A DNA stretch of 64,000 nt, taken from Schmidtea polychroa (taxonomy: Eukaryota). This document shows, piece by piece, positions 35,938 through 63,341 of the stretch. The position numbers were made by a program, and so were the translations under genes. How positions within the stretch are numbered: position 1 is the stretch's first letter; each line of letters starts with the position of its first letter. The stretch spans positions 104,904,001 to 104,968,000 of the forward strand of contig CM097886.1 of NCBI GenBank assembly GCA_044892525.1, read 5' to 3'. The notes under the pieces are model-generated. The model worked only from the letters and a program-made list of their open reading frames with translations, ran no database searches and was not told the origin of the DNA.

Positions 35938-36181
35938 AGTAGTGGTTATAAGACCCTCACAGACACAACCCTCCTGGTTAAAGCTGCTTCCAAACACTTA
36001 ATATATACTAATAACACCCCTAATTTTTACACTTTTAACTCTTTTAGACCCCTTATTTTTAACACAAAAAAGCCGAGGGTTTTTGTTTTCAAGCCCTATA
36101 AACATAAGAAAAAAGGAGAAGAGATGGAATTTAGCAAACTACCAAAGGGGTTATGTCCGTGAGGGTCTTATAACCACTACT
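35938..36181 (+). repeat. Left terminal 244-bp module with its own 23-bp inverted ends
   Basis: AGTAGTGGTTATAAGACCCTCAC (35938-35960) and its reverse complement (36159-36181). Confidence 0.9.
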
Positions 36182-38170: not shown

Positions 38171-38187
38171 TATTTTAACATTTTAAA

Positions 38188-40972: not shown

Positions 40973-41077
40973 AGAATGGATGCCTTTGTAAAATTGGAGG
41001 AACTCCACAGAATAATGGTAAAGGATTGTATTTAAAACCTTGGAAGGAACTATGATACCATTTTTGATACCATTAAA

Positions 41078-41938: not shown

Positions 41939-41974
41939 ATACGAAGTTATAAATACAAAGTTATAAAATATAAA

Positions 41975-42427
41975 ATGACTAATCCTTCAATATTAGATTT
42001 TTTAAAAACATTTGGAATAAATGTAAAAACACATTTCAATTTAAAAGATTATGCAAATTATTTAAATTTAAAAATAAAAATATTAATGAATGATGAATTG
42101 TCGAGTCTGGAAGACACCTCAAAGAAACGAAGTCCCCTGAATATAATAATCAATTATCAAAATTCAAATGAAAAAGGATCTCATTGGGTTTGTATATATA
42201 ATAAATCTATATACTTTGATTCTTTTGGGATTAAACCTACTAAAGAAATTGAAGACTATCTCTCAAAGGGAGATTATGCTTTTAATTCTTTACAAGTTCA
42301 ACCTAATAATACTAAAATATGTGGTACTTTAAGCTTATATGTTTTGTATAGATTAAATAAATCCAAAGGAGAAGGTTTCACTTCCTTAATCCAAGTAATT
42401 TATAATGATTTAAAATCTCTACTATAA
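41975..42427 (+). CDS. Adenain-like cysteine protease
   Basis: GSHWVC, YFDSFG, Q.Q.....CG catalytic His/Asp/Gln/Cys pattern. Confidence 0.92.
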   Translation: MTNPSILDFLKTFGINVKTHFNLKDYANYLNLKIKILMNDELSSLEDTSKKRSPLNIIINYQNSNEKGSHWVCIYNKSIYFDSFGIKPTKEIEDYLSKGDYAFNSLQVQPNNTKICGTLSLYVLYRLNKSKGEGFTSLIQVIYNDLKSLL

Positions 42428-42429
42428 AA

Positions 42430-43170
42430 ATGGAAGACAATTTAAAAAAAATGGCAAACATAATGTCAGATAAATATTCAAGAAGTTTATTAATAAATTC
42501 AAAAGAATCAGACTTTACTATAAATTTTGAAGATTCAATAAATTTAGATCAAGATTTAAATTATGAATTAGGACTCTTGTGGTTTAGCTGTTTTAATACT
42601 ATTTTTAATATAAATAATAATAATAATAAATTTATTATAGTTAAGAGTGATATTAAACCTAGTATTATAACAATCGAACCAGGATCATATGAAATACCAG
42701 ATTTAGCTAAAACAATTCTAAAAGAAACAAATGGAGAAGTAGAAATAAAAGCAGATGTAAAAACTTCAAAATGTATTACAACTTTAAAAAATGTTGGACT
42801 TACTGTTACTAAATCTAGTTTCTTTCATACTATTATAGGTTTTGAAGCCAGAGCTTATGGCACCAACCATTCACCTATTAAATCTAAAAATATTATACAA
42901 TTAACAAATACAAATTGTATAAATATAGAGTGTGATTGTATAATGGGATCATATAATAATGGTAAACATGCAAATATTTTATATTCCTTTCCTTCTAATA
43001 CCGTGGGAGTTGGATTTAAAATAGTTGAAAGAATGAATCCCCCAAATTATTTACCATTATGTAGAAAAAATATAATGGATATTAGTTTTAGAATTGTTGA
43101 TGAAAATGGGAAATTAATTAGTTTTAATGGAGAAAAGATTTCAATGTGTTTACATTTGAAACAAGTCTAG
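42430..43170 (+). CDS. Minor capsid / penton protein (PX)
   Basis: YELGL, NTIFNI, PGSYEI, INIECDCI.GSY.NG....ILYSF and RIVDENGKLI.FNGE motifs. Confidence 0.8.
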   Translation: MEDNLKKMANIMSDKYSRSLLINSKESDFTINFEDSINLDQDLNYELGLLWFSCFNTIFNINNNNNKFIIVKSDIKPSIITIEPGSYEIPDLAKTILKETNGEVEIKADVKTSKCITTLKNVGLTVTKSSFFHTIIGFEARAYGTNHSPIKSKNIIQLTNTNCINIECDCIMGSYNNGKHANILYSFPSNTVGVGFKIVERMNPPNYLPLCRKNIMDISFRIVDENGKLISFNGEKISMCLHLKQV

Positions 43171-43202
43171 AGGAACTTCTAAGGATTTTTATTACTATAA
43201 AA

Positions 43203-44240
43203 ATGAATTATGCTAATTATAATAAGTTTGGATTATATAATGGTGGATTAAAAGATGAAGATGTTTTATCTCTTACAGAAAAGAGATATATTAATGAAAG
43301 AGGTGATTCAATGAAAGGAGATTTAAATTTAAATGGACACAAGATAAAAGAATTATCTTTACCAACTGATGAAGGCGATGCAGTTAATAAGAAATATGTA
43401 GATGATATTAATACCCCAGCATTAAAAAGGATAACGGCAAACGAACGTTTTTTAAATAGTATATATTCCGCGGTTGGCAAATTCTACGAGAAAATGACTG
43501 AAGGTTTTGAGTTTTTTAAACTCAAATTTCAAACCCAGTTAAATGAAGAAGCTAAAAAGATAGCTGAACATAACAAAAAGATAACTGAAGAAACTCAAAG
43601 GTTAACTGATACAAGGCTTAAAGATAAACAAATTATAGATAATAAAATTAATACAATATATAATATAATAAATGAGATGATTACATCATTTAATAAAAGA
43701 ATTTCAAATTTAGAGTCTCATGGAACACATATTAACACCACACATAGTATTAGAAAAAGAGCTGCTGAATTAGAACAGAATAAAACATTATTACCCCATA
43801 CATATAAACATTTTATAGAACCAACTTCAATAACAACAAATAGTAAAGAATGGAGTGTTTTTATGGTTGTAAAGATTATTAATCCTTATTTCTATTTATT
43901 TGATGATGATGGTGAAACAGTGAAATGGTTTGTGAAATGTGATAATAATAGTAAGTTTGAAAAGGGTGATGTTATAATGACTGGTTATGATTTACCACAC
44001 GGATATTGGCATAATAAAACTAATTCACATAAAAGCCAAGGAATACATAAAACTAAAAGTAAGAATATTATTTTTAAAAGCATACTTGTACAATATATAG
44101 ATTTAATATTTTATGAAAAAAAGGTTGATTTTGATGAAGTTCGTAAAGCATTGATGGAATTGTATAAAGATATTCTCTCAACACGAGGTTCTTATGATTT
44201 GCGAGCATTGGTGCCAGGTAATAAAGTCATGTTTTTTTAA
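43203..44240 (+). CDS. Fibre-like protein
   Basis: GDSMKGDLNLNGHKIKELSLPTDEGDAVNKKYVD (phage-fibre-type repeat), then a coiled coil and a beta-rich head. Confidence 0.55.
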   Translation: MNYANYNKFGLYNGGLKDEDVLSLTEKRYINERGDSMKGDLNLNGHKIKELSLPTDEGDAVNKKYVDDINTPALKRITANERFLNSIYSAVGKFYEKMTEGFEFFKLKFQTQLNEEAKKIAEHNKKITEETQRLTDTRLKDKQIIDNKINTIYNIINEMITSFNKRISNLESHGTHINTTHSIRKRAAELEQNKTLLPHTYKHFIEPTSITTNSKEWSVFMVVKIINPYFYLFDDDGETVKWFVKCDNNSKFEKGDVIMTGYDLPHGYWHNKTNSHKSQGIHKTKSKNIIFKSILVQYIDLIFYEKKVDFDEVRKALMELYKDILSTRGSYDLRALVPGNKVMFF

Positions 44241-44255
44241 TTAATTATTATTAAA

Positions 44256-44834
44256 ATGGAAGAAGTAAGAGAAGAAAAAATTTACCCAGAATTGAGATCA
44301 AGATATTATTCTCCCTCAGCTCCCACAGAACTTGAAATTATGAGAGTAAAAGAATTTAAATCAGAAACCTTACATTTACAAGATTTATTAAAGCATTATA
44401 AAAAAATTAAAAATAGATGGAATAAAGGGAATACAGTTTTAAAAGTTGTAGGTTATTCTTTAGGATTTGCATTTGCAATATTAACAGTTATTTTACCTAT
44501 AACTTTACCAGTTTTAACAATTGCACCTGTAATACTTGGAAGTATTTCAGTAGCTGATGGTTTCTTAACTGAAATAGTTTCACTATCTTATACTTCTAAA
44601 AAGAAAAGTTTATATCGTGAAGTTTGTTTATTAATAGAATTAGGAATCTCTAAATTATTTTTATTTCAATTAAAAGCTTTGGAAGATGGAATCTTAACTG
44701 ATGATGAAATAATGAAATCAAATCAAATAATACAAGATATTAAAAATAATATTAATAGATTAAAAAGTGCTAATGTTATAACTAATGAATATTCTAAAAA
44801 AATTAAACGAGAGAAATGGTTGAAGAATTCTTAA
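44256..44834 (+). CDS. Small membrane protein with central hydrophobic hairpin
   Basis: VVGYSLGFAFAILTVILPITLPVLTIAPVILG segment; 192 aa. Confidence 0.6.
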   Translation: MEEVREEKIYPELRSRYYSPSAPTELEIMRVKEFKSETLHLQDLLKHYKKIKNRWNKGNTVLKVVGYSLGFAFAILTVILPITLPVLTIAPVILGSISVADGFLTEIVSLSYTSKKKSLYREVCLLIELGISKLFLFQLKALEDGILTDDEIMKSNQIIQDIKNNINRLKSANVITNEYSKKIKREKWLKNS

Positions 44835-44981
44835 TTTTATAAATATAAAAATGGATGCATTTTTAAAAAAAAGTAGATCAAGTTGCTATAGTTGATACTT
44901 CTAAATTAAATTTGTAAAATGTTGGGTACTTCAGAATGACTTTCAGATTCTACTATGAGAAGAATAAGAAATGATTGAGGA

Positions 44982-45329
44982 ATGGGTTCTCCTTTTAGAC
45001 ATGCTGTTAAAAGTAAAAAGAAAGGGGTTGTTAATAAAAAGAATAAGGGTGAAACCAAACCTCCACCCGGTGAAACATTAGCAGGAAAATCTTTTTATTG
45101 TACAGATTGTTCAAAAGTTTTTAAATCTAGTAAATCTTCTCAGAATCATGTTTGTAAATCAAAAGATACTCTGGCCTCTGGGAACCTGACTTCTGGGGCT
45201 TCGCGACCTTCCGGGAATATATATATAGCATCTTTAATAATAAAAATCTTAAATCTGGAGGTCATTCTTAAAGGCATTCGGAAGATCATTCTGAGGAGGA
45301 AGAAGTTGAAACAAGTAAAAAACAATTAA
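44982..45329 (+). CDS. Basic C2H2-like Zn-finger protein (possibly frameshifted)
   Basis: FYCTDCSKVFKSSKSSQNHVC. Confidence 0.45.
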   Translation: MGSPFRHAVKSKKKGVVNKKNKGETKPPPGETLAGKSFYCTDCSKVFKSSKSSQNHVCKSKDTLASGNLTSGASRPSGNIYIASLIIKILNLEVILKGIRKIILRRKKLKQVKNN

Positions 45330-45383
45330 ATGATATTTAGAAGGGGTCGCTGAAAAGGAAAACTTAAAATTTTCGAGTATAAA

Positions 45384-45764
45384 ATGGATTGCGATTCAGT
45401 TGTTGCGATAATTAGTGAAGAACCTGAAATGCAAGAAGAATGTGTAAAGCTTTTAACAGAATTTAATAAACAAAGTATGGGAACTCAAGTTGATTATGGT
45501 AGACAAGCAATTGTTTATCGTGTTGGACAAGACGAAATATTAAAGAGATTGATGAATAGGACTGTTGATCTTCGTCTGGAAAATAAAGGATTAAAGGAAG
45601 AGAATGAATATCTATTTCGAAATGCTACTTTAGTTAATAAAAGTTTTATAGAATCTATGCATGGAAAACACATATTATTAAGTAATTCTAATGCTGTTCG
45701 GGATGAAGAAATGAGGATGGAAATCGAGGAGTTAATACGAAGACCAATACCAAAGATATTATAA
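45384..45764 (+). CDS. Hypothetical coiled-coil protein, 126 aa
   Basis: ATG-initiated ORF with heptad pattern. Confidence 0.45.
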   Translation: MDCDSVVAIISEEPEMQEECVKLLTEFNKQSMGTQVDYGRQAIVYRVGQDEILKRLMNRTVDLRLENKGLKEENEYLFRNATLVNKSFIESMHGKHILLSNSNAVRDEEMRMEIEELIRRPIPKIL

Positions 45765-45941
45765 TTAATATAAAAACCCCAATAATAAAAATTATTATAT
45801 TTCTTAGTCTACAAAGTTTTAAATAACATTCGTCAACAGCATCATATAATTTTTTAGTTTTGTTTATGAGTTCTTTATTTTTTGAATATCTTAAATTAAT
45901 TGTCGACATTTTATACATTTAAAAATCAAATATCATTAGTT

Positions 45942-48900
45942 TCAGTCATGGTTGAACTGGACCTTCTCTAACACCTGAAGGCTTTTCCTATGGGATTCGA
46001 AAGCATTATCACTTAGACCTTGAATATATTCAGGATCAGTATTAAAATAATCAAGTTCTATAGGTATTGATTTTTGAACTTTATTATATAGAGGTTTTTG
46101 GGGAATGTTTAATTTAAAATATTCATCCTTTGGGTAAACTCTTCCGGGGTAAATGATTTCAACTTTACTAAGTTGAACATCTGTTATGTTTGTACCATAG
46201 AGATCATTCAATCTTGCAAGTTTTTTTATTATTGGGATTAAATCATTTCCAATTGGAAGAGTTGTTTTTAAATCACTTAGAATAAATCTTTTATCATCAT
46301 AATTTGATAGTGATATCTTGGCTGATTCTTGCTGATACATATCATGCTTCACGGATTTAAGTTGATGTACCTCTTCTATTTTATCTAGAGAATCTTTATT
46401 TAGAGCGTCTTTATAATCTTGATGAGTGATTTTCTTGGATACTGATTTTTGTATCCCTTTGCATTTGTTGTCTTTAAGGGTTTTTATATCAGAGGTCCTT
46501 AATGGTCCTTCAAATGTATAATCTATTTCATCTCTAACCATATATATTTTTGTTTCTGTCAGACTCTCGATCATTTCAAGTGAATATTGTTTCGCTCTAA
46601 TAAATATAGCACCAGTTATTGGAGTATTTGGTTTTTCATCTTTGAATGTGAATAATTCACCGGATGAATTTATTAGTTTTGAAAGCATGGGGTTTTCAGA
46701 TATTTCTTTTTTTACATCTATACCATATATTTTTAAAAACATACTATCTGTATCCATTGCATGTAAGGATATTCGATCACCAAAGTATGGTACTAGAACA
46801 TCATAATAGGTTTCATACATTTGCAATTTTGATAATTCTAAAATAGCGAAGCCTATAAAGATTGGTTTATTATAAGTTTTTTGGTTATTTTGAATTTCAA
46901 TTGCTACAAGGTTCTTTGAGAATACTTCGGCATTTTTAAACGTTGGTTTTCCAAGCATTCTATTATATCTTGCAAAGTCTTTGGGGGTATTTGATAGAAG
47001 ACCTATTCGAGCATACTTGTCAATATTTTCCATAGTCTTACCAAAGACTGCGTTGTTTAAAAGTTTATAAATCATATCAAGAAAAGCATTACCTTGTCTT
47101 TTTGCTTCATTTCTCTTCTTAATATTTCCTTCTATAAAATTTTTCATAAATGGTGCTTGTCGGAATTTTATAATACTGTGAACTTTTTTAAATATCATTC
47201 CATGAGAGATGAAAAATTGTAGAAGCCTATAATGACAAAGATAAAACTTTACACCTTTTTGGTTGCAAAGAAGTTTCCTTGCAGGGGGTCTATTTTGACC
47301 GATTTGCCAATCTGAAAGTTCACTGATATCAATCTTTCTTCTTACAGGAGCAAATGGGAAATTCCTAGTTGAAGATTTTATTTCATCTGGGTACTCAAGA
47401 TCACACTCTATAAAATATCCAAAATCTGCATCTTTTTCAGTTGATAATATTTCATTTAAAAGATCTTCTAGTTTATCTTTTTCTTTAGGAATATCAACCC
47501 AGGAGAACTCACCAATTGGTAAATATTCAGTCATTACACCCCCATATAGAGCCGTTGCATCAAGATAAAATATTTCACATGGATTTGTTAAACATTCTTT
47601 TATAAATTTAGAGTCTCCTGGGTTTTCTATTACTATATAGTCTTCATCTATATCTTTAAAGAATTTTCTATAAACAGCTAATGGATTGTTTGCTGTTATC
47701 TCTCTATCTCCCATTACAGAGGAAATACCTCCTCTAATATTATGTTTAATTACATTAAACATATTAAGATCAGTTAATAGTTCTATAATTTTATTTCTTG
47801 TTTCTACATCTTCTTCCGTCCATATATTATATAACATTATATCCCAAGCTAAAGCGGGTGCTGTTATATAATTATAGGGTTTTAATTCAAAGGCTTTACA
47901 GAAACCTTCGAAGCAGTCTGCTAAAATATAAACATCAAGGGATAAATACATGTCGGTATATTCTCCAAGGTTTTGACAGTTGAATAATTGATACATTTTA
48001 TTTGCTCGAGAATATTCTTGATCTGTAATATTTGATTGTCGAAGCACTGAAGAGAAGTGGTCTTTAGGTGGTATTGCTTCATTATATTTATCAAATGAAT
48101 CAATATAATCATATGGATATATTCCTTTTGCTAAACATGTTGGATATTCTTCCAAGGGAATGTTATTTTTTATCAAAACATGCTCTGTTGTATATTTAAA
48201 ATCTTCTGGTTTCATTGTTTTAGCTATTCCATCTAAGGACATTCCTAGAAAATTTAGAGAATCTATAAATTTTAAACAACCATATTGTACACATTTATAT
48301 TTTTCTTTTGTAAGTCCTATAACCTTGAAAGAATTTTTAGCATTTGCTGCTAGATGTTTTATAAATAAATGTATATCATATCCAAAAAGATTATGAAATA
48401 TAACTGGTATAAATTTAGGTTTTTTACAATTTATGTTACAGTTTGTATGAGCTGCTCCTCTATAATTATTTAATTTTTTAAAATGATCATGATCTGGTAC
48501 TTTTATATTTTGAGTTTCATTATTCGGAGTTTGCCTTTCATGAAACATTCTTTGTTCTTCTTCTTCCAAAGACTCAGTATTCAAGGGGACTGTGTCCATA
48601 GACTCCATATTCAAGGGGACTGCGTCCATAGACTCCATATTCAAGGGGACTGCGTCCATAGACTCCGTATTCTCAAAGAGTTGATCCTCAAAGAATTGAT
48701 CCTCAAAGAGTTGATCCTCAAAGAGTTGATTCTCAAAGAGTTGATTCTCAAAGAGTTGATTCTCAAAGAGTTGATTCTCAAAGAGTTGATTATCAAAGAG
48801 TTGATTCTCAAAGAGTTGATTCTCAAAGAGTTGATTCTCAAATGGTTGTTTACACATCCAACATTTTGAAGCATTTTTATATTCTTCCCATTGTTCAATT

Positions 48901-50735
48901 GAAAAATTTATTTTATAATCTGTTTTTAATATTTTAAATAATTCATGTTCTAAATCATTTACATTTTTACTAAAATGATTTAGAACATCTTCTGGAGAGG
49001 TTCCTCTATATGAATATTCTTTAGATTCTATAAGTTCAGGGTAATTACTTTTAAATAATAATTTATAAGCAGATGGTACTTGTTTGGTTAATTTTATTGT
49101 ATAAGATTTTTTATTTAACTTTAGAAAGTTTTTCATACTCTCCCATGGCAGTCTTGGTGACTTTGGGGAATAATCATACCAAGAATCTGATAAATTATTA
49201 TTTTCTATTATTTTTAAATATTCTTTTTCTAAATCAAGCTTTATATTTATTGCTTCAAAGTCTCCATATATTACACCTATTGATTCTAATAAATTTGAAA
49301 AATTTTTAAAGTTTATGTCTGATTTTGTGGGCATTTTAATTAATGCTGGTTGGTTCTTCTCACATAATCTTTCATGCATAATCATTGCGTTTTTAGATGT
49401 TGAATAGTGAAGACATCTTTTACAAGTTGTTCCGCCTCTAATTAGAGTTCTTGTGCGCATAAAACTTTGAAAGTTTTTTATTAGAATATAGTGTTGTTTC
49501 CCTTCTGGGGTTTCTTCTTCATCTTGCTCTATAACTTGTTCATCTTCATTAAAAACATATTCCCCACATTCTTGATCTTGTCCTGTGCCCTCTTCTAATA
49601 TTAAAAGATATATTTCTCTATTTTTGTCTTGTTCTAATAATTCTTTATTTGAAATATAAATTGGTATAATACGTTTCTTAAAATCTTCTTTATCTAGAGC
49701 ATATTCATAAATATTAAGTTTAATATTATTTAAATTTTCAAATGTTGGAATGTCTTCAATTTTCATTGGATGTTTAAATCCTTCAGGATATATTAATTCA
49801 TTTTCATTTTGTTTATAATTAGAAACCCTTTGGGGATTCCTTGCTTGAGGATGCAAGTGTGCAAGTATTGACCATTGAAAACATTTGTTATCACTATTCT
49901 GTACATTTATAACATAGATGGAGGGGAATGGTGTGCGAATAAAAGATTTAGGATTTGGGGGTGCTGCTCTCCAATATTCAATTTCTATAGATTGAAAAGA
50001 ATAGAATCTTAAATTTGATTCTCCCAATTCTTGTTCTACAACCTCTTGTTGCTCTTCCATCTCTTCAGTCAAATCCTTGATGATTTTATTTATTCCCTTT
50101 GTTGAGAATAAATATTTAAAAGATGTTTCGATGTTAGAATCTAGAGGGGTTGTGCCTGCTTCTTCTCCTCTCCAATATTTTACCAAGATTCTAACTTTAT
50201 ATTTTATAACGTTGAATCTTGATCGACTAAATTTTTTTCGAGCATTGTCCATTGAATTTTTTATGTTTTGTTTATTTTTTCTTATATAATCTAAGAGTGA
50301 AGAGGAAAACATTTGTTCTCCAAATATATCTGTATGGTTGGAGTTGTCCCAATTATATTTTTCTTTTTCAATGTGTTCAGGTTCTTCCTCAAAATCTTCT
50401 TCAGACTCAGAATCTCTTTTAGGTATTGGTTGTTTGTTCTCTATAGCACATTTTTTTACATGTTTTAAAAAATAAGATTTTATATTAAATTTTGATTTAC
50501 ATATAGGACATTCAAATTTTTCTCTATTTTTAGGAACTCCAATACAACTTTCAAAATGTTTATCATATCCTGAAAGTAAATATCTAACTTTACATTTAGT
50601 ACAAATTTTTGAATTTGAATTATCAAGTCTATTTATTTTTAATAAATGGTCTTTTGATTTTTGGTGTGATAGTAGTGCGGTTTTATTTTTAAAATTTTTT
50701 TTGCAAATAGTACAATTATAAATATTAGAATTCAT
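45942..50735 (-). CDS. polB: Protein-primed B-family DNA polymerase (pPolB) with N-terminal Zn fingers/terminal-protein region
   Basis: YGDFE (ExoI), FHNLFGYD (ExoII), LDVYILAD (ExoIII), LDATALYG, KLLNNAVFGKTMEN and MDTDS. Confidence 0.96.
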   Translation of the reverse strand: MNSNIYNCTICKKNFKNKTALLSHQKSKDHLLKINRLDNSNSKICTKCKVRYLLSGYDKHFESCIGVPKNREKFECPICKSKFNIKSYFLKHVKKCAIENKQPIPKRDSESEEDFEEEPEHIEKEKYNWDNSNHTDIFGEQMFSSSLLDYIRKNKQNIKNSMDNARKKFSRSRFNVIKYKVRILVKYWRGEEAGTTPLDSNIETSFKYLFSTKGINKIIKDLTEEMEEQQEVVEQELGESNLRFYSFQSIEIEYWRAAPPNPKSFIRTPFPSIYVINVQNSDNKCFQWSILAHLHPQARNPQRVSNYKQNENELIYPEGFKHPMKIEDIPTFENLNNIKLNIYEYALDKEDFKKRIIPIYISNKELLEQDKNREIYLLILEEGTGQDQECGEYVFNEDEQVIEQDEEETPEGKQHYILIKNFQSFMRTRTLIRGGTTCKRCLHYSTSKNAMIMHERLCEKNQPALIKMPTKSDINFKNFSNLLESIGVIYGDFEAINIKLDLEKEYLKIIENNNLSDSWYDYSPKSPRLPWESMKNFLKLNKKSYTIKLTKQVPSAYKLLFKSNYPELIESKEYSYRGTSPEDVLNHFSKNVNDLEHELFKILKTDYKINFSIEQWEEYKNASKCWMCKQPFENQLFENQLFENQLFDNQLFENQLFENQLFENQLFENQLFEDQLFEDQFFEDQLFENTESMDAVPLNMESMDAVPLNMESMDTVPLNTESLEEEEQRMFHERQTPNNETQNIKVPDHDHFKKLNNYRGAAHTNCNINCKKPKFIPVIFHNLFGYDIHLFIKHLAANAKNSFKVIGLTKEKYKCVQYGCLKFIDSLNFLGMSLDGIAKTMKPEDFKYTTEHVLIKNNIPLEEYPTCLAKGIYPYDYIDSFDKYNEAIPPKDHFSSVLRQSNITDQEYSRANKMYQLFNCQNLGEYTDMYLSLDVYILADCFEGFCKAFELKPYNYITAPALAWDIMLYNIWTEEDVETRNKIIELLTDLNMFNVIKHNIRGGISSVMGDREITANNPLAVYRKFFKDIDEDYIVIENPGDSKFIKECLTNPCEIFYLDATALYGGVMTEYLPIGEFSWVDIPKEKDKLEDLLNEILSTEKDADFGYFIECDLEYPDEIKSSTRNFPFAPVRRKIDISELSDWQIGQNRPPARKLLCNQKGVKFYLCHYRLLQFFISHGMIFKKVHSIIKFRQAPFMKNFIEGNIKKRNEAKRQGNAFLDMIYKLLNNAVFGKTMENIDKYARIGLLSNTPKDFARYNRMLGKPTFKNAEVFSKNLVAIEIQNNQKTYNKPIFIGFAILELSKLQMYETYYDVLVPYFGDRISLHAMDTDSMFLKIYGIDVKKEISENPMLSKLINSSGELFTFKDEKPNTPITGAIFIRAKQYSLEMIESLTETKIYMVRDEIDYTFEGPLRTSDIKTLKDNKCKGIQKSVSKKITHQDYKDALNKDSLDKIEEVHQLKSVKHDMYQQESAKISLSNYDDKRFILSDLKTTLPIGNDLIPIIKKLARLNDLYGTNITDVQLSKVEIIYPGRVYPKDEYFKLNIPQKPLYNKVQKSIPIELDYFNTDPEYIQGLSDNAFESHRKSLQVLEKVQFNHD
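48577..48845 (-). repeat. In-frame coding minisatellites in pPolB: ~12 x 15 bp (LFENQ) and ~3 x 30 bp (NMESMDAVPL)
   Basis: Directly visible in DNA and translation. Lies between CWMC and DHDH of the EndoVII-like Zn module. Confidence 0.93.
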
Positions 50736-50854
50736 TTTTAAAAAAATTTTTTTTATTGGATGGGGTGTTTTTAAGATTTATAAAATATTTATAATTTTAG
50801 TTGGCACCGTGCCAAGTTAGCAGCTTGCTAGAAGGCGGCTTGCTATAAGGCATA

Positions 50855-51098
50855 AGTAGTGGTTATAAGACCCTCACGGACATAACCCTTTTGGTAGTTT
50901 GCTAAATTCCATCTCTTCTCCTTTTTTCTTATGTTTATAGGGCTTAAAAACAAAAACCCTCGGCTTTTTTTTGTTAAAAATAAGGGGTCTAAAAGAGTTA
51001 AAAGTGTAAAAATTAGGGGTGTTATTAGTATATATTAAGTGTTTGGAAGCAGCTTTCAACAGGGGGGTTGTGTCTGTGAGGGTCTTATAACCACTACT
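50855..51098 (-). repeat. Right terminal 244-bp module (inverted copy of 35938-36181)
   Basis: Near-identical reverse complement. Weaker TIR similarity continues ~80 bp inward. Confidence 0.9.
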
Positions 51099-51470
51099 CA
51101 TACTTTTTCAAAATTTTTCTAAGTCAAAACAAAGACATGTAAGAAATAGCAAAAAATTTTTATGACTCATACTTTTTCAAAATTTTTCTAAGTTAGAACA
51201 AAGACATGTACCCCCCCCCCTACCCCCTTGCAAAAAATTTTTATGACTCATACTTTTTCAAAAATTTTCTAAGTCAAAACAAAGACATGTAACCCCCCCC
51301 CCTAGTAAAAAAATTTTTATGACTCATACTTTTTCAAAATTTTTCTAAGTCAAAACAAAGACATGTAACCCCCCCCCCCATAGCAAAAAAAAAATTTTTA
51401 TGACTCATACTTTTTCAAAATTTTTCTAAGTTAGAACAAAGACATGTAACTCCTAGCATTAATTTTTATG
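51099..51470 (+). repeat. ~70-80-bp satellite (5 units) containing ATGACTCAT and C-runs
   Basis: Unit tcatactttttcaaaatttttctaagt(c/t)a(a/g)aacaaagacatgta(c)n..gcaaaaaatttttatgac. Polinton 1 is inserted in it. Confidence 0.88.
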
Positions 51471-52660
51471 AATCATTATTATTATTTCAAAATATTACTA
51501 TAATAATTAATATTATTATTATTGATATTAATACTATTTAAATTATTTTTATTATTAAACATCCTTAGTATTATTTTTTAAAATTATTGAATGACTTTAA
51601 TATTGCATCTGAATTGCATCTTTCTTTATTAAACTTGCAACTGTATTGCCGTTGTCTTTCTTAATCATATATTATTTTTTTTTCTAACCTATTATCTTTC
51701 AATTTATTTAAATATTATTATTATTATTATTATTAATATTATTATTATTATTATTAATATTATTTTTTTCTAAATCAATAACAAATAACTGATTAAAAAT
51801 TTATTGATTAAAAAATCTATTAAAAACTAAGAGCAAGACTTGCACGTTCTAATCTCCATATTGGAGAATAAATATTGTTTTGGTCCACTTTGAATTCTAA
51901 GTTAGAACAAAGACATGTATCCCCCCCTCTATTTTTAAATTTTTTATTATATATATTTTTTTCAAACAATTTTAGTTTCTAATTATTATTATTTCAAAAT
52001 ATTATTAATATTATTATTAATATTATTACTATTTAAATTATTATTATTATTAAACATCCTTAGTATTATTAATATTATTTTTTAAAATTATTGAATGACT
52101 TTAATATTGCATCTGAATTGCATCTTTCTTTATTAAACTTGCAACTGTATTGCCGTTGTCTTTCTTAATCATATATTATTCTTTTTTCTAACCTATTATC
52201 TTTCAATTTATTTAAATATTATTTTTATTATTATTATTAATATTAATATTATTATTATTAATATTATTTTTTTCTAAATCAATAACAAATAACTGATTAA
52301 AAATTTATTGATTAAAAAATCTATTTAAAACTAAGAGCAAGACTTGCACGTTCTAATCTCCATATTGGAGAATAAATATTGTTTTGGTCCACTTTGAATT
52401 CTAAGTTAGAACAAAGACATGTATCCCCCCCCTCTATTTGTAAATTTTTTATTATATATATTTTTTTCAAACAATTTTAGTTTCTAATTATTATTATTTC
52501 AAAATATTATTAATATTATTATTGATATTATTACTATTTAAATTAGTATTATTATTATACATCCTTAGTATTATTAATATTATTTTTTAAAATTATTGAA
52601 TGACTTCAATATTGCATCTGAAATGCATCTTTCTTTATTAAACTTGCAACTGTATTGCAG
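51430..52660 (+). repeat. ~470-500-bp AT-rich tandem units (left inverted-repeat arm)
   Basis: AAGTTAGAACAAAGACATGTA recurs at ~51428, ~51899 and ~52403. Confidence 0.85.
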
Positions 52661-52819
52661 CGGTCTTTGTTAATCATATATTTTCTATCCTTATTTGTGT
52701 TAGCAAGGGTCATTATATAATAACTTATACAAATTATTATTAAAACAACCAATGAAAGCCATACACATAAATGGTATAAATAAAATGAAAAACAAAAAAA
52801 AATCATATTTCATTTAAAA

Positions 52820-53333
52820 ATGAACGCGGAAATAATTGAAATTTAGACGGAGTGGTATCAAATGAAAGGGGAGGTGAATTAATCACAAATATTCAAATTC
52901 TCGTGGATGAAGCCATGAAAATTTACAGAAGGAATCCCGTCGATTTTTCGTGGATCCTCACAAGGAAAACCATAAATGCAAAGGAAAATGCATTTAAAAG
53001 CATATTTTATTCCTTATTTGAAAATATGAAGTGGTCACGGGTCATCGTGGCTTTCTTATACATGAAAATTATTTTACAAAGATCTGAAGAGAACTATGAA
53101 AGATACTTTCAATGGTCTGTACAGGTATGTGTATATATATATATATATATTTTTAAAATAATATCTAGATAATTCAAAATGAAATTTCGCCATGGGTATC
53201 AGAAAATGGATCCTGGAATGTCATTAATGAAATTGTTGAAAAACGAAAATCTCAAGACAAGACAAAATTAATTTTAATAATGTTTGGAATTACTGTATGT
53301 TGTTTTTCTATAAAATATATTTTTAAAAAGTAG
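52820..53333 (+). pseudogene. bcl2-like: Intron-containing Bcl-2 family gene (intron 53125-53168), with lesions
   Basis: Exon 1 has BH1-like LFENMKWSRVIVAFLY. A phase-0 44-nt GT-AG intron follows. Exon 2 has BH2-like ISPWVSENGSW, then a TM anchor LILIMFGITVCCFSIKYIFKK after a 1-nt frameshift. Confidence 0.75.
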
Positions 53334-53680
53334 TACTTCTTTTATTCTTTAATATTGTAAAATAAAAAAAATTTTAATCTTTATTATTTATTACACTATA
53401 ACATTCGCATTCCTCGTCACCACATTTATTATCTTTATTTGTTTCTTCATCATTGTTCATATTTTTGTCATATTGTGCATCATCCGATATATGATTATAT
53501 ATTTATTCCGGTCATTTCTAATATTTTTTCGGCTAAATACTTTATCAGATCATCTATAAAAATAATTAAAAAAAAAATAATAATATTAATAATTTAATAA
53601 TTAATAAATAATAATATTAATAAATAATAATATTAATAAATAATAATATTAATAAAATAATAATATTAATATTTGTTGAG

Positions 53681-54193
53681 GTGTGTGAGTCTGATGAGTT
53701 AAATAAATTAAATAGTGTGAGCAAGGATGATGAGCCTAAATTTGTGTTAGTATTGCCGTACTCAGAAGGTTTTAAGGATTATAAAGTGAAGATAAGAAAG
53801 CAGTTAGGGAATTTAAACTATAGGATAGTGTCAACTTCATGGAAAGTACGCAATATGTTTATTAATAAGTCAAAGACTCCGGTTGAATTGTGTTCCGATC
53901 TCGTTTATCAGTTGTCATGTAATGGGTGTAATGCCACATACATTGGAGAGACTTCCCGTCATCTCTGTATTCGAGCTCGAGAACATTGTAGACCGAAGTC
54001 TTTGACCCATATTGGTGAGCACAATAAGGGCTGTAAGATTAAAATAGGTATGTCTGATTTTAAAATTTTATTAAAAAACTTTGATAATTATTGGGAACGT
54101 GTGATTTGTGAGGCGTTGTTGATAAAATCATTGAATCCGAAAATTAATGTGCAGAATGCTGTAAATACTTGTGTGTTGAGTGTTTTTAAATAA
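53681..54193 (+). CDS. Penelope RT C-terminus + GIY-YIG endonuclease (fragment)
   Basis: VY..SC..C...YIGET motif with the CCHH pattern typical of PLE endonucleases. Confidence 0.88.
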   Translation: MCESDELNKLNSVSKDDEPKFVLVLPYSEGFKDYKVKIRKQLGNLNYRIVSTSWKVRNMFINKSKTPVELCSDLVYQLSCNGCNATYIGETSRHLCIRAREHCRPKSLTHIGEHNKGCKIKIGMSDFKILLKNFDNYWERVICEALLIKSLNPKINVQNAVNTCVLSVFK

Positions 54194-54387
54194 GCTTTTG
54201 TGTATTGTATGTATTGTTTGTTGTGTTAAATTAAATAATTGATAAAAAATTTTTAAATTTTTAAATTATTAAATTAAATTTTAAATGTTAAAGTTTTTAA
54301 AAAAAAAATAATATTTTTATAAAATAAAAAATTTTTTATATATAATTAAATTTGTTTAAAATCCTTTATTTAATAAGTATTATATCC

Positions 54388-54426
54388 CACCTGATGATGA
54401 CAGGAAAACTGTCGAAATTAATCGTG
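54388..54426 (+). ncRNA. Minimal type I hammerhead ribozyme
   Basis: CAC-CUGAUGA-U-GACAG(GAAAA)CUGUC-GAA-AUU/AAU-C^-GUG: intact core, 5-bp stem II, palindromic stem III, 3-bp stem I. Confidence 0.85.
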
Positions 54427-54832
54427 AAAAAAATGTTTGATTGGCGTTATCTTATAATTAAATCATTGCCATGTATGTTTAACTATTTATTAATAATAAA
54501 ATACCTTTTTCATTTAAAGTAGACATTTTATGTATTTTATGTATTATGTGTCTTTGTTTATTTGCATGTTTATTGCACATGTCTTTATGTTATTCATGTG
54601 ATGACTTAGTCATCTCTTTGTTAAAAATACTCATCATTTCCTTGTTTAAATTTAGTAGTCATGTCTTTCTAATTTACATGCTATTTATTTTTTCTAACCA
54701 ATCACAATTCTGATTGGTCAATTTTATCATTTCACTAAATACTCAATTTCGATTGGTCGGTGAGTAAATCTTTTTGTTTTGATATTATGTATAATCATTA
54801 CTTTTAATTTCACTTTTAGAAAATTTCAAAAT

Positions 54833-57800
54833 ATGAACAAGCAAATATTCATGACTAAAGAAGAAGAATTGATTTCGCGAAAAAGTAAATTTATTATTTT
54901 TATTTTTAAACTTGAATTTATTATTATGTTTTAGGAAATGTTTGTCGCTTTTTCATTGGGAATCCGAAAAAAGCTCGTTTAGGAAACATACAGCAAAGCA
55001 AAATTTATTTAATTTTTAAAATTTTATTAATATTTTCCTATTAGATGTTTTAGCTTCAACTTCCGCTTCTATTCGATCCAATTTTTTGCCTGTGGATATT
55101 GATGAAGGTAAATTATTATTACTATTCAAAATATATATATATATATATTCAGAAAACAACCAAAATGTACCCAACAAATCTCCCAGGAATGACAAAAAAG
55201 AAAAATATTTAATGAACAATGCCATTCAAAAACCAAACATGCCCAATATTTCGACAAATGCCAAACAAAAATTAACCAACAAGTCTCGCAGGAAGAACAA
55301 AAAAGAAAAATGTAAGTGTTTTCAAATTGAAATATGTGATTCGAATAATTTATTTATTAATTATGATATATATATTTTAAAGTAATTTATATTTTAGTTT
55401 TTATTACGTTTTTATAAAATAATAACTGTTTTCCAATTGAAATATATGATTAGAATAATTTATTTAATAATTATGATATATATATTTTCAAGTAATTTAT
55501 ATTTTAGAATTTATTATGTTTTTATAAAATAATAACTGTTTTCCAATTGAAATATATGATTAGAATAATTTATTTAATAATTATGATATATATATTTTAA
55601 TGTAATTTATATTTTAGAATTTATTATGTTTTTATAAAATAATAACTGTTTTCCAATTGAAATATGTGATTCGAATAATTTATTTAATAATTATGATATA
55701 TCTTTTTTCAAGTAATTTATATTTTATTACTTTTTATAAAATAAATAATTCAAAATAATTATCGATTTTTTTTTTAAATTATTTTATTTGGAAAAATTTA
55801 CATTTTAATAATATTTTTGAAAATAAATTTCATAATAGTTATCAACTTAAATAATAAAAACATTTAATGAAATAGTTAAAACCGATAAAAAAATTATAAC
55901 AAATTCTGAGGAAACTGAAATTATTGCACCAGAACCTATAGCAATTACTGAGGTTATAATAATTTCTGATGACGATGAAAATGTACAAGAAGAAGAAGAA
56001 TATGGAGCTGAAGATCACGAGGGAGACCGTAGAGAAGATAGGCCAGAAGATGGTGGAGAAGATGGAGCTGAAGATCGTGGAGAAGATGGTGCTGAAGATG
56101 GGCCAGAAGATGGTGGAGAAGGCCTTGGAGAAGATGAATAAAATTTACCAGTGATCGAATATGATTTGAATCGATTGCATAGAGTAATAAAATTAAACAT
56201 TGAAAGATATAATATGAATACCATTGAATTACCAGTTCCTATTTTACTTGCATTGAGAAATGCTTTAAACGAACTCGGTCACGCAAAAATCCAATTTGGG
56301 GTTAATGTGGAATTTATTAAAGATGGAGGCACAAAAACTGCGTGGATTTCCAATAAAGCAACAGAATATTCAGAAACATTCCTTGAGCAAGGTATTAAAA
56401 AATTATACGAAAAAATAAATGTTCGAACTGTTGCGGGAAGCAGTTGGATTGTGAACAAAGTGTTAGAAATAATTTTCACTGTCACAAAATATCATCCAAT
56501 AAGTAGGCTAAGCGGACATAGCTACTTGAAGACACCAGCGACTTTAGCTAATAAACATGCTATAGTTAATATTAAAAATACGGATAATTTATGCTTTCTT
56601 TATAGCATACTTTGTATTAAAAATTTGGATGTAATTCGAACAAATAGGCAACGAGTTGAGAATTATGCAGATTATATGGATCAATTGATGTATGATGAGG
56701 AAGATTTTCCTATGCAGTTATCTAACATAAGGAAATTCGAGCGAATTAATCCAGGACTGGCAATCAATGTTTTCAGTTACACTTGCACAAATGTTTTGAA
56801 CATCGATGAAAATGATGAGGAAACCGTTTTTAAACATCCGAATTTGGATATAATACATCGGACTAAAGTAGAGGGCGTAGCACCGATCTATTTGCTAATG
56901 TTGGAAGAAGGTGAAAAGTTTCACTATACTGCTGTTACTAATATGCAGCGGTTAATGAATTGTCATGAGAAGGAAGATTGCCCAGTTCGGATTCAGTGCA
57001 AATGGTGCGAAACATGTCTGAATGGCTTTAGAAAAGATATGGCTTTTGAAAAACACAAAGTAATTTGCAGAAAAAATATGCTCGGTACTACAATGTACAC
57101 GATGCCTCAAAATAAAGATTTGGTATTTAGTGATTGGTCCAAAACAGTCACTCCACCATATGTTATTTACGCCGATTTCGAGGCGATCTTACCCGATGAT
57201 GAAATACATCATCAAATTCATTTACCAATAGCAGTGGGGCTGTTGTTGATAAATAATTTCACTGGGGTAAGTCAATACCATCAATTTATTGGGCCGGAAT
57301 GTATTGTGGAGTTTTTGGCAAAAATTGAACAACTGGGGCAGCAAGTAGTTTTGCCATACTATTATAGAAATGCAAGGAAAACAATGATAATGTCAGCAGC
57401 AGAACGGATAGCATATAATAGGGCGCGAGTGTGTTATCTGTGCAATAAAAGAAAATATTTAGTCAGAGATCATGACCATTTTACGGGCGAATATTTGGGC
57501 GCAGCATGCAATGACTGCAATTTATCAAGACAAATAAGATATTTATTACCGGTAGTATTTCATAATCTGAAAGGATATGACTTACACCATATTTTGAAAT
57601 ACGGACTCAATGAATTTACACATTGGTCCTTAAATTGTATTCCAACAACAACGGAAAAATTTTTATCATTGATGGTGAGAATAAAAAACTTAACCGTGCG
57701 TTTCATTGACAGTTTGCAGTTTGTCAATGATTCGTTGGCAAAAGCGGTTAAGACATTGAGTGGATTACCGCTAACTCGTTCAGTATTTGGTGGAACATTG

Positions 57801-59458
57801 GTAGAAACAAAAGGGATTTTCCCTTATAATCATGCGAAAAGCTTAGAAATTTTGGAAAACACAACAGAATTGCCACCGATTTGGGAAAAAGTAACACAAG
57901 AAGAATATCAGAAAGCACTGGAAATTTGGGAAGAAACCGGTTGTCAAAATTTACTGGATTACATGAAAATATATTTGAAGCTGGACGTGTATTTACTGGC
58001 CGACGTATTCCAGCAGTTTCGAGCAAGATCAATAGCGCACAATAAATTGGAGCCACTAAATTTCTTTGGTATTCCCGGAATGAGTTGGGCATCGGCACTC
58101 ATGACGCTAAGGGAACCCATCGAGCTTTTAGTCGACATCGAAATGTACAATTTTTTCGATGGAGGTATACGTGGTGGTCTCACATTTGTGAATAAACACT
58201 ATGCAGTGTCGTCAGAAAACACTGAGTTGTTGTATATCGACATCAACAACTTATACGGCTGGGCATTGAGTCAAAAATTGCCATGTAAAAATTTTAAATG
58301 GATACTGGAGGAATCGGATTTGGAATCGATTTTGGAACAATGTGTGAATCAAGATTTAGAAACATTGGATTATGGCTATACCATGGAGGTGGACATGGAA
58401 ATTCCAGATGATTTACACGACAAATTCGATGATTTCCCAATCGGTGCAGAGAAGATGAAAGTGAATAAAGTCGAAAAGTTAATGCTAACACATTTACCAA
58501 AAACAAACTATGTTTTACATTGGCGACTCCTGAAAATGTACATGTCATTGGGTGTACAAGTGGAGAAGATACACCGGGCAATAAAATATGAGCAAAAATG
58601 TATCTTTAAGAACTATATAGATACGAATACACAATTGCGGGCAAATTCAACAAATGCTCTGGATAAAAACTACTACAAGTTATTGAACAATAGCTTGTAT
58701 GGCAAAACAGTAGAAAATTTAAAGAAGCGGTTGAATCTGAGGCTGTGCAACAAACAATCAAAAATGGAAACTTATGCCTCAAAGCCCACATTTAGGAGGT
58801 CGATCAAAATAGCAGATGATCTGATAGCAGCAATATTGAATATGGAAACTGTATGTTTAGATAGGCCAAGTTACATTGGGCAAAGTGTACTTGACTTATC
58901 CAAACTTAGAATGTATGAATTGCACTATGTAGAACTGGAGAAGTATGCAGTATAGATATTTTAGCAGGGGACACGGATAGTTTTTTCCTGGAATGTAAGA
59001 ATGTGAAGTTGAGAACACAATTACTTCCAGCCATGATTGCCGATAATTTATTGGATACAAGCAATTATGATCCGACAGACCCTTTGTACAATCAAAACTT
59101 GGATTCAGTTATAGGGAAATTCAAGGATGAAAATAAAGGTAAAAAATATAAAGAAATGATATTTCTAAGACCCAAGTGCTATAGCCTCTTGAATGAAGAT
59201 AATGATACAACAAATAAGGCAAAAGAGGTAAATTTAGAGGATAGTATTATAAATCATCAATCATATGTAGATTGTTATAATGGTATGGAAATACCGCCAA
59301 TTCCTCAAAGTAATATAAGCACTAGAAATCATCAGCTTTTCACTATAAAAAATAATAAGGTTGCATTAACAAATACTGATGATAAAAGGGTCTGGGTTGC
59401 TATAAATAAAAGTCATGCATATGGGCATTATGCAGTAAATTGGCGGGCTCCTATTTAA
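54833..59458 (+). pseudogene. polB: Spliced pPolB gene of element 2 (exons 54833-54884, 54935-54997, 55045-55107, 55153-55311, 55876-59458), with TAA at 56139 and a frameshift near 58950
   Basis: YADFE, FHNLKGYD, LDVYLLAD, DINNLYG, KLLNNSLYGKTVEN; GDTDS lies in the shifted frame. The four upstream introns are all phase 1 and keep the frame. Confidence 0.75.
55321..55748 (+). repeat. 110-bp tandem repeat (~3.9 copies) inside predicted intron 4
   Basis: TTC(A/C)AATTGAAATAT starts at 55321, 55431, 55541 and 55651. Confidence 0.9.
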
Positions 59459-59504
59459 CAACCAGGTTCACAAGAACTTATATATAATCGGTAAAAATTA
59501 TTAA

Positions 59505-59583
<79 letters not shown>
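59505..59583. repeat. (TAT)n microsatellite
   Basis: Direct reading. Similar tracts at ~51715-51765 and ~62395-62468. Confidence 0.95.
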
Positions 59584-60082: not shown

Positions 60083-60430
60083 TTAAACAGATAAATAATC
60101 AATAGCCCCCAATAAACATTGTTGATACGCGCAATTTAGATGAGTTCCATAAATACAGTGAATATTTTCTGGGATTTTCCGAATGGTTTTGAATTGATAC
60201 AATATTAATCGTAAATTCGGGAAGCTTTTCTTTAGTTTTTGATACTTTCTTTCATCGATAACATAGAAAATACTTTCATTTTTTATTGTTTTCAAATATT
60301 CTTCGTGAAATTTCGAATTAATGTAAACACAATGTATAGGCTCTAAAATATTATTCACATCCATAATACATAATTCAGTAACAGTATCAAATAGAATATC
60401 AATGAAAAAACAAGTCATTTTAAAAAACAT
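60083..60430 (-). CDS. Hypothetical protein of element 2
   Basis: ATG-initiated 115-aa ORF directly downstream of the protease; no motif recognised. Confidence 0.4.
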   Translation of the reverse strand: MFFKMTCFFIDILFDTVTELCIMDVNNILEPIHCVYINSKFHEEYLKTIKNESIFYVIDERKYQKLKKSFPNLRLILYQFKTIRKIPENIHCIYGTHLNCAYQQCLLGAIDYLSV

Positions 60431-60434
60431 TTAT

Positions 60435-60836
60435 TTAGTAATGTTTATACATTAGCCAAGCAAGACAATGTTGACCACATGTTTGAGTCAATGGATGTTG
60501 AAACTGAATTTTGTTGTATTCAATAGGACCACCATATAAGGTTAGTTTTTTGATCAAAAGAGTAATATAATAGAAACCCATAGGTTCGAAAACATATACG
60601 TTATCGGGCTTCTTATAGACTGCAATCCAGTGTTCTCCACCAAGAGTAGACGAATCAGTGTTGACAATAATGGGTTTTTTTTTAAATAGGGGATTTTATC
60701 TAATGGGTACACTCCAACAAACTTATTTCACAGAATTTGATAACCAATTCGATTAACCTGAACAGAATGATTATAATAATAACATTAGTTATTAAAAACT
60801 TACTCCATGACAAGCTAATTTCTTTCTTTACTTCAT
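60435..60836 (-). pseudogene. Adenain-like cysteine protease (not in ORF track), with predicted intron 60758-60803, stops and a frameshift in an A-run
   Basis: Manual translation gives KFVGVYPLDKIP / PIIVNTDSSTLGGEHWIAVY...FEPMG...NKIQFQHPLTQTCGQHCL. Confidence 0.8.
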
Positions 60837-60854
60837 TTATGATCAATAAAAAAA

Positions 60855-61242
60855 ATGTTTGTTCAAACCAACAATGCGGAAACAAACCTAAAGCGAAAAA
60901 CATACTATTATATTTTTCAAAACTGGAAAATGTTGAATAATGGGTTGTAAAGCTACAATAATTACGAATGATTTGCAGTATAAAAATACAAATATAGTGT
61001 TACAATAAATTACCGTTACTATAGATCTGGGAAAATGTATTAATTTATACAAATTGAGTAAACAAACCAATTGCATGTTCGAACCAGAATTATTTCCAGC
61101 TTTGAGATATATAAAATATAACCCTATGTGTGTCAATGTGTTTTCGAGTGGAAAAGTTGTTGTGTTAGGGCTTAGAAATTTAGGTTACATCTCATTCGTT
61201 GATAATTTAGTAAAGGATATCATAAGATTGGTTGAGAAATGA
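60855..61242 (+). pseudogene. tbp-like: TATA-binding-protein-like gene with in-frame stops
   Basis: One frame reads HTIIFFKTGKC*IMG...LQ*ITVTIDLG..INL..L...FEPELFPAL......CVNVFSSGKVVVLG, matching both TBP repeats (TALIFSSGK; YEPELFPGL...IFVSGKVVLTG). Confidence 0.75.
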
Positions 61243-61994: not shown

Positions 61995-62330
61995 ATGTAT
62001 TTCCTAAAAGATCCGATGGAAATAAAGTTAACGAATCCTGTCAAGTTATGCAAAACTCTTTATCCCCATCTTATGGCAACTTTGTCAACAGAAGATGTTG
62101 AAGTTTTAAAGAAATTGTTTACGAAAATCAATAACAATATCCAAGTAACGAATACAGTGTTTTTCAATGTTCGTCAAGCTCGATTTTATGATGCATTTCA
62201 AGAAATTATATTCAAGGAGAATAAAAACTGGTATGTCACAATAAAGATTCAAGGATTCAAAGTAGACCAAAACAATATTTATTCTCCAATATGGAGATTA
62301 AAACGTGCAAGACTTGCTCTTGGTTTTTAA
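61995..62330 (+). CDS. Hypothetical protein, possibly an OB-fold ssDNA-binding protein
   Basis: C-terminal V.IKIQG......SPIWRL strand pattern is reminiscent of viral SSBs; weak. Confidence 0.35.
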   Translation: MYFLKDPMEIKLTNPVKLCKTLYPHLMATLSTEDVEVLKKLFTKINNNIQVTNTVFFNVRQARFYDAFQEIIFKENKNWYVTIKIQGFKVDQNNIYSPIWRLKRARLALGF

Positions 62331-62403
62331 TAGATTTTTTTTTAATCAATAAATTTTTAATCAGTTATTTGTTATTGATTTAGAAAAAATAATAATAATA
62401 ATG

Positions 62404-62468
<65 letters not shown>

Positions 62469-63341
62469 TTGAAAGATAATAGGTTAGAAAAAAAAACATA
62501 TGATTAAGAAAGACAGCGGCAATACAGTTGCAAGTTTAATAAAGAAAGATGCAATTCAGATGCAATATTAAAGTCATTCAATAATTTTAAAAAATAATAT
62601 TAATAATACTAAGGATGTTTAATAATAATAATAATTTATATAGTAATAATATCAATAATAATATTAATAATATTTTGAAATAATAATAATTAGAAACTAA
62701 AATTGTTTGAAAAAAATATATATAATAAAAAATTTACAAATAGAGGGGGGGGGGGGGGGGGATACATGTCTTTGTTCTAACTTAGAATTCAAAGTGGACC
62801 AAAACAATATTTATTCTCCAATATGGAGATTAGAACGTGCAAGTCTTGCTCTTAGTTTTTAATAGATTTTTTAATCAATAAATTTTTAATCAGTTATTTG
62901 TTATTGATTTAGAAAAAAATAATATTAATAATAATAATAATAATATTAATAATAATAATAATAATAATATTTAAATAAATTGAAAGATAATAGGTTAGAA
63001 AAAAAATAATATATGATTAAGAAAGACAACGGCAATACAGTTGCAAGTTTAATAAAGAAAGATGCAATTCAGATGCAATATTAAAGTCATTCAATAATTT
63101 TAAAAAATAATACTAAGGATGTTTAATAATAAAAATAATTTAAATAGTATTAATATCAATAATAATAATATTAATTATTATAGTAATATTTTGAAATAAT
63201 AATAATGATTCATAAAAATTAATGCTAGGAGTTACATGTCTTTGTTCTAACTTAGAAAAATTTTGAAAAAGTATGAGTCATAAAAATTTTTTTTTGCTAT
63301 GGGGGGGGGGGGGGGGGGTTACATGTCTTTGTTTTGACTTG
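62255..63341 (-). repeat. Right inverted-repeat arm
   Basis: Reverse complement of the 51346-52400 units. Confidence 0.85.

Follow-up and report, generated by a model that had tools for sequence, protein, structure and literature searches.

A broken, spliced Bcl-2-family gene in a decayed pPolB element of the planarian Schmidtea polychroa

A spliced gene of the Bcl-2 family is present in Schmidtea polychroa, in a window of 64,000 nt (GenBank assembly GCA_044892525.1, contig CM097886.1, positions 104,904,001 to 104,968,000 of the forward strand), and this copy of it is a pseudogene. It lies in element B, the second pPolB element of the window, at a distance of 136 nt from the inner boundary of the left inverted arm (Table 1). 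We lean towards the view that it is the decayed remnant of a viral-type Bcl-2 gene carried as cargo by an element of the Polinton lineage, the intact form of which would have encoded a tail-anchored protein of about 165 residues that delayed mitochondrial death. The present state of the case is one pseudogene in one decayed element. We believe it is worth pursuing for its non-canonical, apparently shared intron and for the reduced, TBP-bearing element that holds it.

Table 1. Features of the Bcl-2-like gene, of element B and of the neighbouring elements (window coordinates)
Feature	Coordinates	Strand	Basis or remark
Bcl-2-like stretch of the Burro-type element, polyprotein residues 1492-1557	22489..22686	-	Pfam Bcl-2 E 0.069
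Canonical Polinton A: capsid, integrase, ATPase, pPolB	35938..51098		AGTAGT...ACTACT ends; Pfam
Left inverted arm of element B	51099..52684		~76-nt units, then ~504-nt units
Probable start of Bcl-2-like gene, broken	52820..52846	+	ATG 52820, stop after 8 codons
Exon 1 body, 95 codons, BH3-like and BH1-like stretches	52840..53124	+	Sub-threshold Pfam Bcl-2; 33-41% identity to five database relatives
Intron, 44 nt, phase 0, GT-AG, (TA)n run	53125..53168	+	CAG/GTATGT ... TAG/ATA
Exon 2, 54 codons and stop: BH2 and C-terminal membrane anchor	53169..53333	+	P0003 alignment; hydropathy
Penelope-like GIY-YIG fragment, probable secondary insertion by the Bcl-2 gene	53624..54476	+	Pfam GIY-YIG E 2e-04
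Second intron-bearing gene, predicted	54833..55311	+	Four exons, compatible phases, no stops
pPolB of element B	56142..59458	+	Pfam DNA_pol_B_2 E 8e-34
115-aa ORF	60083..60430	-	Homologue beside TBP/protease in L006, tblastn E 7e-05 to 1e-04; no Pfam family
Adenovirus-type cysteine protease (adenain), two frames, broken	60438..60727	-	Pfam Peptidase_C5 E 1.1e-05; 50% to L006 protease
TBP-like gene, two in-frame stops	60892..61239	+	Pfam TBP E 1e-11; PDB TBPs; 43% to L006 TBP-like ORF
Right inverted arm of element B	62252..63340		Includes 3' end of ORF 61995-62330

Structure and family membership of the gene

The Bcl-2 body from 52840 is read in a different frame from the ATG at 52820, and with the early stop behind this ATG a full protein could not be made from this copy. 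The database relatives P0001, P0003, P0005 and P0006 start approximately 5-10 residues ahead of their match to the first part of the body; because they resemble even the body's first residues, the break has removed the natural N-terminus.

Read without splicing, the frame meets a stop at 53170. The GC content of the intron is 11%, against 34% and 24% in the two exons. Residue 94 of exon 1 aligns with residue 110 of P0003 (exon 1 reaching to 111) and the first residue of exon 2 with residue 112, so that the join is gapless. Among the eight nearby in-frame GT..AG pairs, the one at 53125-53168 has the best donor consensus and the gap-free fit; two others share its acceptor and differ by two codons. 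Exon 2 matched residues 112-155 of P0003 with E 9e-07, and when each exon was compared with P0003 and P0004, none of 2000 shuffles reached the real score in any of the four comparisons. The 44-nt, phase 0 intron by which a sequence-only reading of this DNA had joined the two exons was thereby borne out.

Exon 1 was searched against 1.84 billion representatives, and three proteins were returned: P0001, P0003 (Bcl-2-like) and P0002, which is a TPR protein and was dropped as a relative. A profile search added P0004, P0005 and P0006, giving five matches among 618 candidates. The identity of exon 1 was 41% to P0003 (E 1.5e-06 in the 1.84 billion representatives), 36% to P0005 and 35% to P0006. Exon 1 itself matched the Pfam Bcl-2 family with E 0.0048 and 17.9 bits, under the curated cut-off of 31.4, while P0003 was over the cut-off of PF00452 (E 1.3e-11). 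P0003 (166 aa) and P0004 (170 aa) are both uninterrupted. A word-indexed homologue search with exon 1 gave no homologue (0 of 2 candidates). An HMM of the five relatives missed exon 2, as most of its rows do not have that part, and exon 2 was found (E 1.3e-04) by the profile A2, in which the C-terminal columns were retained. The five relatives and nearly all close pPolB relatives of element B are unnamed ENA/JGI records; the relatives' contigs are 500-1405 nt long and offer no gene neighbourhood.

The predicted model of P0003 (mean pLDDT 85.5) superposed on pro-survival Bcl-xL/Bcl-2, its closest structures, with Z 15.8 and rmsd 2.2 over 131 aligned residues, and Bax superposed within 1 Z unit of these. 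Viral Bcl-2 proteins were matched by Foldseek with this model, and its neighbours in BFVD include BALF1-type proteins. Searching the ESM Atlas with P0003 led to Bcl-2 clusters (0.93-0.95), and with exon 1 to no usable match; the AlphaFold model of exon 1 alone was poor (pLDDT 49). The top solved-structure sequence matches of both exon 1 and the family profile were schistosome Bcl-2 proteins (PDB 3QBR and 7JMT), which keep NWGR and are weak matches (E 0.084 with the single exon 1, 1.1e-04 with the profile). The assignment to the Bcl-2 family is firm, and the fold is established for the relative P0003, not for the window protein.

The BH2 motif and the tail anchor that had been noticed from the sequence were both confirmed in exon 2, where PWVSENGSW is followed by a hydrophobic C-terminus (best 19-aa Kyte-Doolittle mean 2.24). 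For the BH1 motif named alongside them, a BH1-like stretch does stand in exon 1 (LFENMKWSRVIVAF), but its conserved glycine is replaced, with KWSR in place of NWGR. The position holds S or T in all six family members (KWSR, KWSQ, KWTR, QWTR), and NWGR with the invariant glycine, the mark of pro-survival Bcl-2 proteins, is therefore lacking in this gene and throughout the six. The text of PMC8998228 ties changes at the BH1 glycine to an altered or non-functional BH3 groove. With the glycine replaced in six of six members, an anti-apoptotic activity is something that we infer.

Element B within a nest of insertions

Three large elements occupy the window: a Burro-type LTR retroelement, Polinton A and element B. 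The gene had been described as part of a Polinton-like element, and it is indeed inside a pPolB element; this is the second element, B, and not the capsid-bearing Polinton A. Membership of Polinton A was rejected because the gene lies 1.7 kb beyond its right end, and no match to the Bcl-2 family was found in Polinton A. The flanks of Polinton A are 6 nt long and match at five of the six positions. A further piece of one left-arm unit of element B is found at 35872-35937, beyond Polinton A; as Polinton A interrupts this repeat unit, it is the younger and element B the older. One Polinton-type element is thus nested in another (35872-35937 and 51099-51450). The locus is a transposon nest with insertions of different ages, so the co-location of two Bcl-2-like cargoes was rejected as a sign of selection, and the shared locus does not speak for the convergent selection that had been proposed.

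Several other features of this nest were observed. The integrase of Polinton A (38188-39573) has an N-terminal phospholipase A2-like domain (Pfam E 2.7e-09), and a 15-nt tandem repeat within its pPolB (48565-48852) encodes in-frame repeated pentapeptides. Repeats rich in TGACTCA, which we take to be AP-1-like, flank the Burro insertion and fill the left arm of element B (970-1345, 34359-34784, 35429-35870 and 51096-51450), and one of them starts like a Polinton terminus.

The left and right arms of element B are 94.8% identical over 1094 nt and 94.7% over 697 nt, which gives terminal inverted repeats of at least 1.1 kb and 95% identity whose precise outer ends are undefined. The arms belong to element B, for they contain the 3' end of ORF 61995-62330; their ~504-nt units (51347-52684 and 62252-63340) take in the last 24 codons of this ORF. 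No 6-bp target-site duplication of element B was seen by reading, and both outer ends adjoin other repeats.

The pPolB of element B is broken by a frame change near 58946-58958 and by a stop just upstream of 56142. It is 62% identical to unnamed metagenomic pPolBs and 30% identical to that of Polinton A, and no match was found in phage records. A midpoint-rooted tree was built from element B and 45 further sequences; 89 had been eligible among the best 120 of 3945 matches. The one point taken from this tree is that element B falls in a clade of 27 (support 1.0) apart from Polinton A; the pPolB of element B belongs with unnamed metagenomic proteins at 40-68% identity. Eight small ORFs of element B gave one weak match in PHROGs. 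The Penelope-like fragment is 87% identical over 362 nt to window positions 1538-1890.

No integrase was found in element B by Pfam rve or by tblastn with the integrases of Polinton A and L006, a Polinton described below (best E 0.51), nor any capsid or packaging ATPase with the sequences of the same two elements (best E 0.38); a run of 184 N is unread in both searches. No ORF of element B is long enough to be a major capsid gene. It seems that capsid, integrase and ATPase have been lost. Element B has four broken genes (pPolB, protease, TBP and Bcl-2), whereas the neighbouring elements keep open ORFs of 4624 aa and 1597 aa, and this contrast favours true decay over assembly error.

A single copy of element B was seen. 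From 144 pattern matches in genome contigs, 34 pPolB loci were gathered. By identity, none of the 34 is a member of the pPolB clade of element B, all being distant (23-38% pPolB identity), and a Bcl-2 gene was found in none of these distant loci (best E 0.055). One of them, L006 (contig JANOGQ010000345.1), resembles element B in its TBP-like gene (43%), adenain (50%) and pPolB (32%) and in a homologue of ORF 60083-60430. The TBP-like gene, the adenain and the homologous ORF (115 aa and 159 aa) stand together in element B (51099-63340) and in positions 1452-2809 of L006. ORF 61977-62327 of element B did not match a 128-aa ORF of L006 (E 12). Unlike element B, L006 has an integrase, a packaging ATPase and two ORFs of the size of capsid genes (no Pfam match); L006 has no Bcl-2 gene. 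The simplest reading is that element B comes from an L006-like Polinton lineage and has undergone deletion or reduction. L006 and a further locus, L010 (CALNXW010000008.1), are contigs in bacterial MAG records that resemble eukaryotic Polintons and are probably mis-binned; L010 matches the capsid, penton, integrase, ATPase and protease of Polinton A.

Origin of the intron and of the gene

In nearly all bcl-2 genes of animals an intron directly follows the TGG of BH2 (GGW), according to the text of PMC7527217 and PMC8998228. This canonical intron is absent here: AATGTC comes after TGG without a break in the frame, and the animal-wide rule may not hold in flatworms. The intron at 53125-53168 lies 16 codons upstream of the canonical site. 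In P0005 and P0006 the Bcl-2 similarity is lost at the same codon and gives way to low-complexity tails that begin with V, as expected from a gene caller reading into a phase-0 GT intron. P0001 reads E-G-I-Y at the junction, with G and not V, so that two of the three truncated relatives speak for a shared site. Judging from these tails, the intron site appears to be common to the window gene and to P0005 and P0006 at 35-36% identity.

The sequence-only reading had taken the intron to imply either DNA-level capture or later intron gain. As proof of DNA capture it was rejected, because the near-universal BH2 intron is missing and the gene's own intron stands elsewhere; later gain is the part that holds up better. 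With the ancestral BH2 intron gone and a new one present, capture by way of RNA and a later intron gain in the element fit better than capture at the DNA level, and the gene may exemplify how mobile cargo loses and gains introns. Introns have been described in Polinton-like proviruses of dinoflagellates (PMC11957031). The second gene predicted in element B would have introns of 50, 47 (GC-AG) and 45 nt; it is a prediction for which no homologue was found. The next donor after it, at 55312, opens into a 110-nt tandem repeat (55306-55847).

In the reading that we favour, an animal host would have been the distant source of the ancestral gene. As the ancestral BH2 intron is missing, the transfer probably went by way of RNA, and divergence would have produced a small subfamily of tail-anchored proteins of some 165 residues. 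A short intron would then have been gained, fitting an element that is transcribed and spliced in the host nucleus. Adenovirus E1B-19K restrains Bak/Bax-type death, and its gene, like that of element B, is placed close to the left inverted end of a genome with pPolB and adenain. Like E1B-19K, the intact protein, anchored in the mitochondrial or ER membrane, would most likely have held back such death during replication of the element's linear DNA by pPolB; in the present copy of element B the gene would have decayed to a pseudogene. That the gene shares the space between the 95%-identical arms with pPolB, protease and TBP supports its being cargo. The single copy of element B, the 0 of 34 distant pPolB loci with a Bcl-2 gene and the absent context of the relatives weaken it. 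We infer that the gene was regular cargo of the family of element B, and its intact product may well have acted against apoptosis.

A different course of events is that element B took up a divergent host bcl-2 paralogue at the DNA level, together with its intron, in which case P0001 and P0003-P0006 would be host genes or transcripts. The relatives could be host genes of unannotated invertebrates, and P0003 and P0004 could be spliced mRNAs; a site apparently shared at 35-36% identity is what an old host intron would give, and the best solved-structure matches are the schistosome proteins. We nevertheless regard this course as unlikely, if a serious contender, in view of the absent canonical BH2 intron, of the introns of the same size in the predicted gene at 54833-55311, and of the fact that no named host protein appeared among the 618 candidates or in the search of 1.84 billion representatives. 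It is very improbable, by comparison, that a stray host pseudogene dropped into one copy of element B, like the Penelope-like fragment, and was never cargo of the element. A retrocopy would be intronless, reading the sequence showed neither a poly(A) tail nor a flanking duplication, the gene begins 136 nt inside the arm, and the relatives are far removed in sequence from all named Bcl-2 proteins, even if the locus is an insertion nest with a secondary insertion ~300 nt downstream, the gene is broken and no second copy of element B was seen.

The gene may also have been cargo of the element without being a classic blocker of death, its Bcl-2 fold with an altered groove serving autophagy, innate signalling or the antagonising of other Bcl-2 proteins. 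Viral Bcl-2 folds can have non-apoptotic roles; the BH1 variants KWSR, KWSQ, KWTR and QWTR in all six members and the BALF1-type neighbours in BFVD agree with this. Many viral Bcl-2 proteins function without canonical motifs, however, and here the tail anchor and BH2 are retained and the closest structures are the pro-survival Bcl-xL/Bcl-2, though with Bax within 1 Z unit. We consider such a role decidedly unlikely.

Relation to known Bcl-2 cargo and to the Burro retroelement

The idea of Bcl-2 cargo is already in print for both classes of element, the adintoviruses and Burro. Bcl2 and IAP homologues were described in adintoviruses by Starrett et al. (PMC8502044, bioRxiv 10.1101/697771); the text of Fig. 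S2 of PMC8502044 holds three Bcl2 labels, a figure legend names TBP, and the string 'Splic' is absent from its main text. 'Bcl' is absent from the available text of PMC11071308 and 10.64898/2026.10.13.758929. No paper on a planarian element resembling B, or on a spliced Bcl-2 gene carried by a Polinton-like element, came up in our literature search. The Bcl2 of the Branchiostoma lancelet adintovirus (A0A5H3CWZ2, in BFVD) resembles the case of element B in that a Bcl-2-fold accessory gene stands with pPolB, inverted termini and adenain. Its identity to P0003 is 13%, so the two were probably captured separately. Element B differs from the adintoviruses in having a TBP-like gene and in showing no detectable capsid, integrase or ATPase. 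Adenovirus E1B-19K, ASFV A179L, gammaherpesvirus vBcl-2 and the iridovirus Bcl-2 proteins share with P0003 the fold (Foldseek, P0003 model) and the small size; their 9-21% identity does not support common descent beyond the Bcl-2 family. Element B probably adds an independent Bcl-2 capture to the elements of the Polinton lineage, in a pPolB clade otherwise of unnamed records.

A BCL2-like motif has been reported in the planarian Burro giant Gypsy-like LTR retroelements (PMC6431247, citing Grohme et al. 2018). The Burro-type element of the window (3997-34361) has LTRs of 99.98% identity and a 4624-aa polyprotein, and shows the layout of the described Burro, with gag, BCL2-like, env/fusion, PR-RT-RH-IN and ankyrin parts and a separate MATH-TRAF ORF. 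Its domain is embedded in the polyprotein and intronless, in contrast to the gene in element B. The Burro stretch matched P0003 with 31% identity over 62 aa (E 2e-04), and shuffles scored as high in 1 of 1000 against P0003 and in 0 of 1000 against P0004 (BH2 half). Against exon 2 the match was weak (13 of 1000 shuffles as high), no match was found in the PDB, and there was none to exon 1 or P0005, where 679 and 955 of 1000 shuffles, respectively, scored as high. By the comparison with exon 1, the gene has no specific kinship with the cargo of the retroelement. As the likeness is confined to the BH2 half and is of family level, these comparisons suggest that the Bcl-2 cargoes of Burro and of element B are likely separate captures.

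If other copies of element B carry an intact, cell-protecting gene, planarian mobile elements would offer two separate RNAi-testable handles on stem-cell death. A bolder view, which we hold to be quite unlikely, is that element B represents a family of linear DNA replicons without capsid or integrase, derived from a TBP-bearing Polinton lineage and persisting in flatworm cells with spliced genes, a TBP of their own and a Bcl-2 subfamily that gains introns; together with Burro, two unrelated elements would then have independently seized the death pathway of the same, long-lived stem cells.

Further genes were observed in the Burro-type element. Separate ORFs on the minus strand (11280-12668 and 29191-29670) encode a TRAF-like protein (RING and MATH) downstream and a RING protein upstream of the polyprotein, and several unannotated ORFs lie at 8457-11061.
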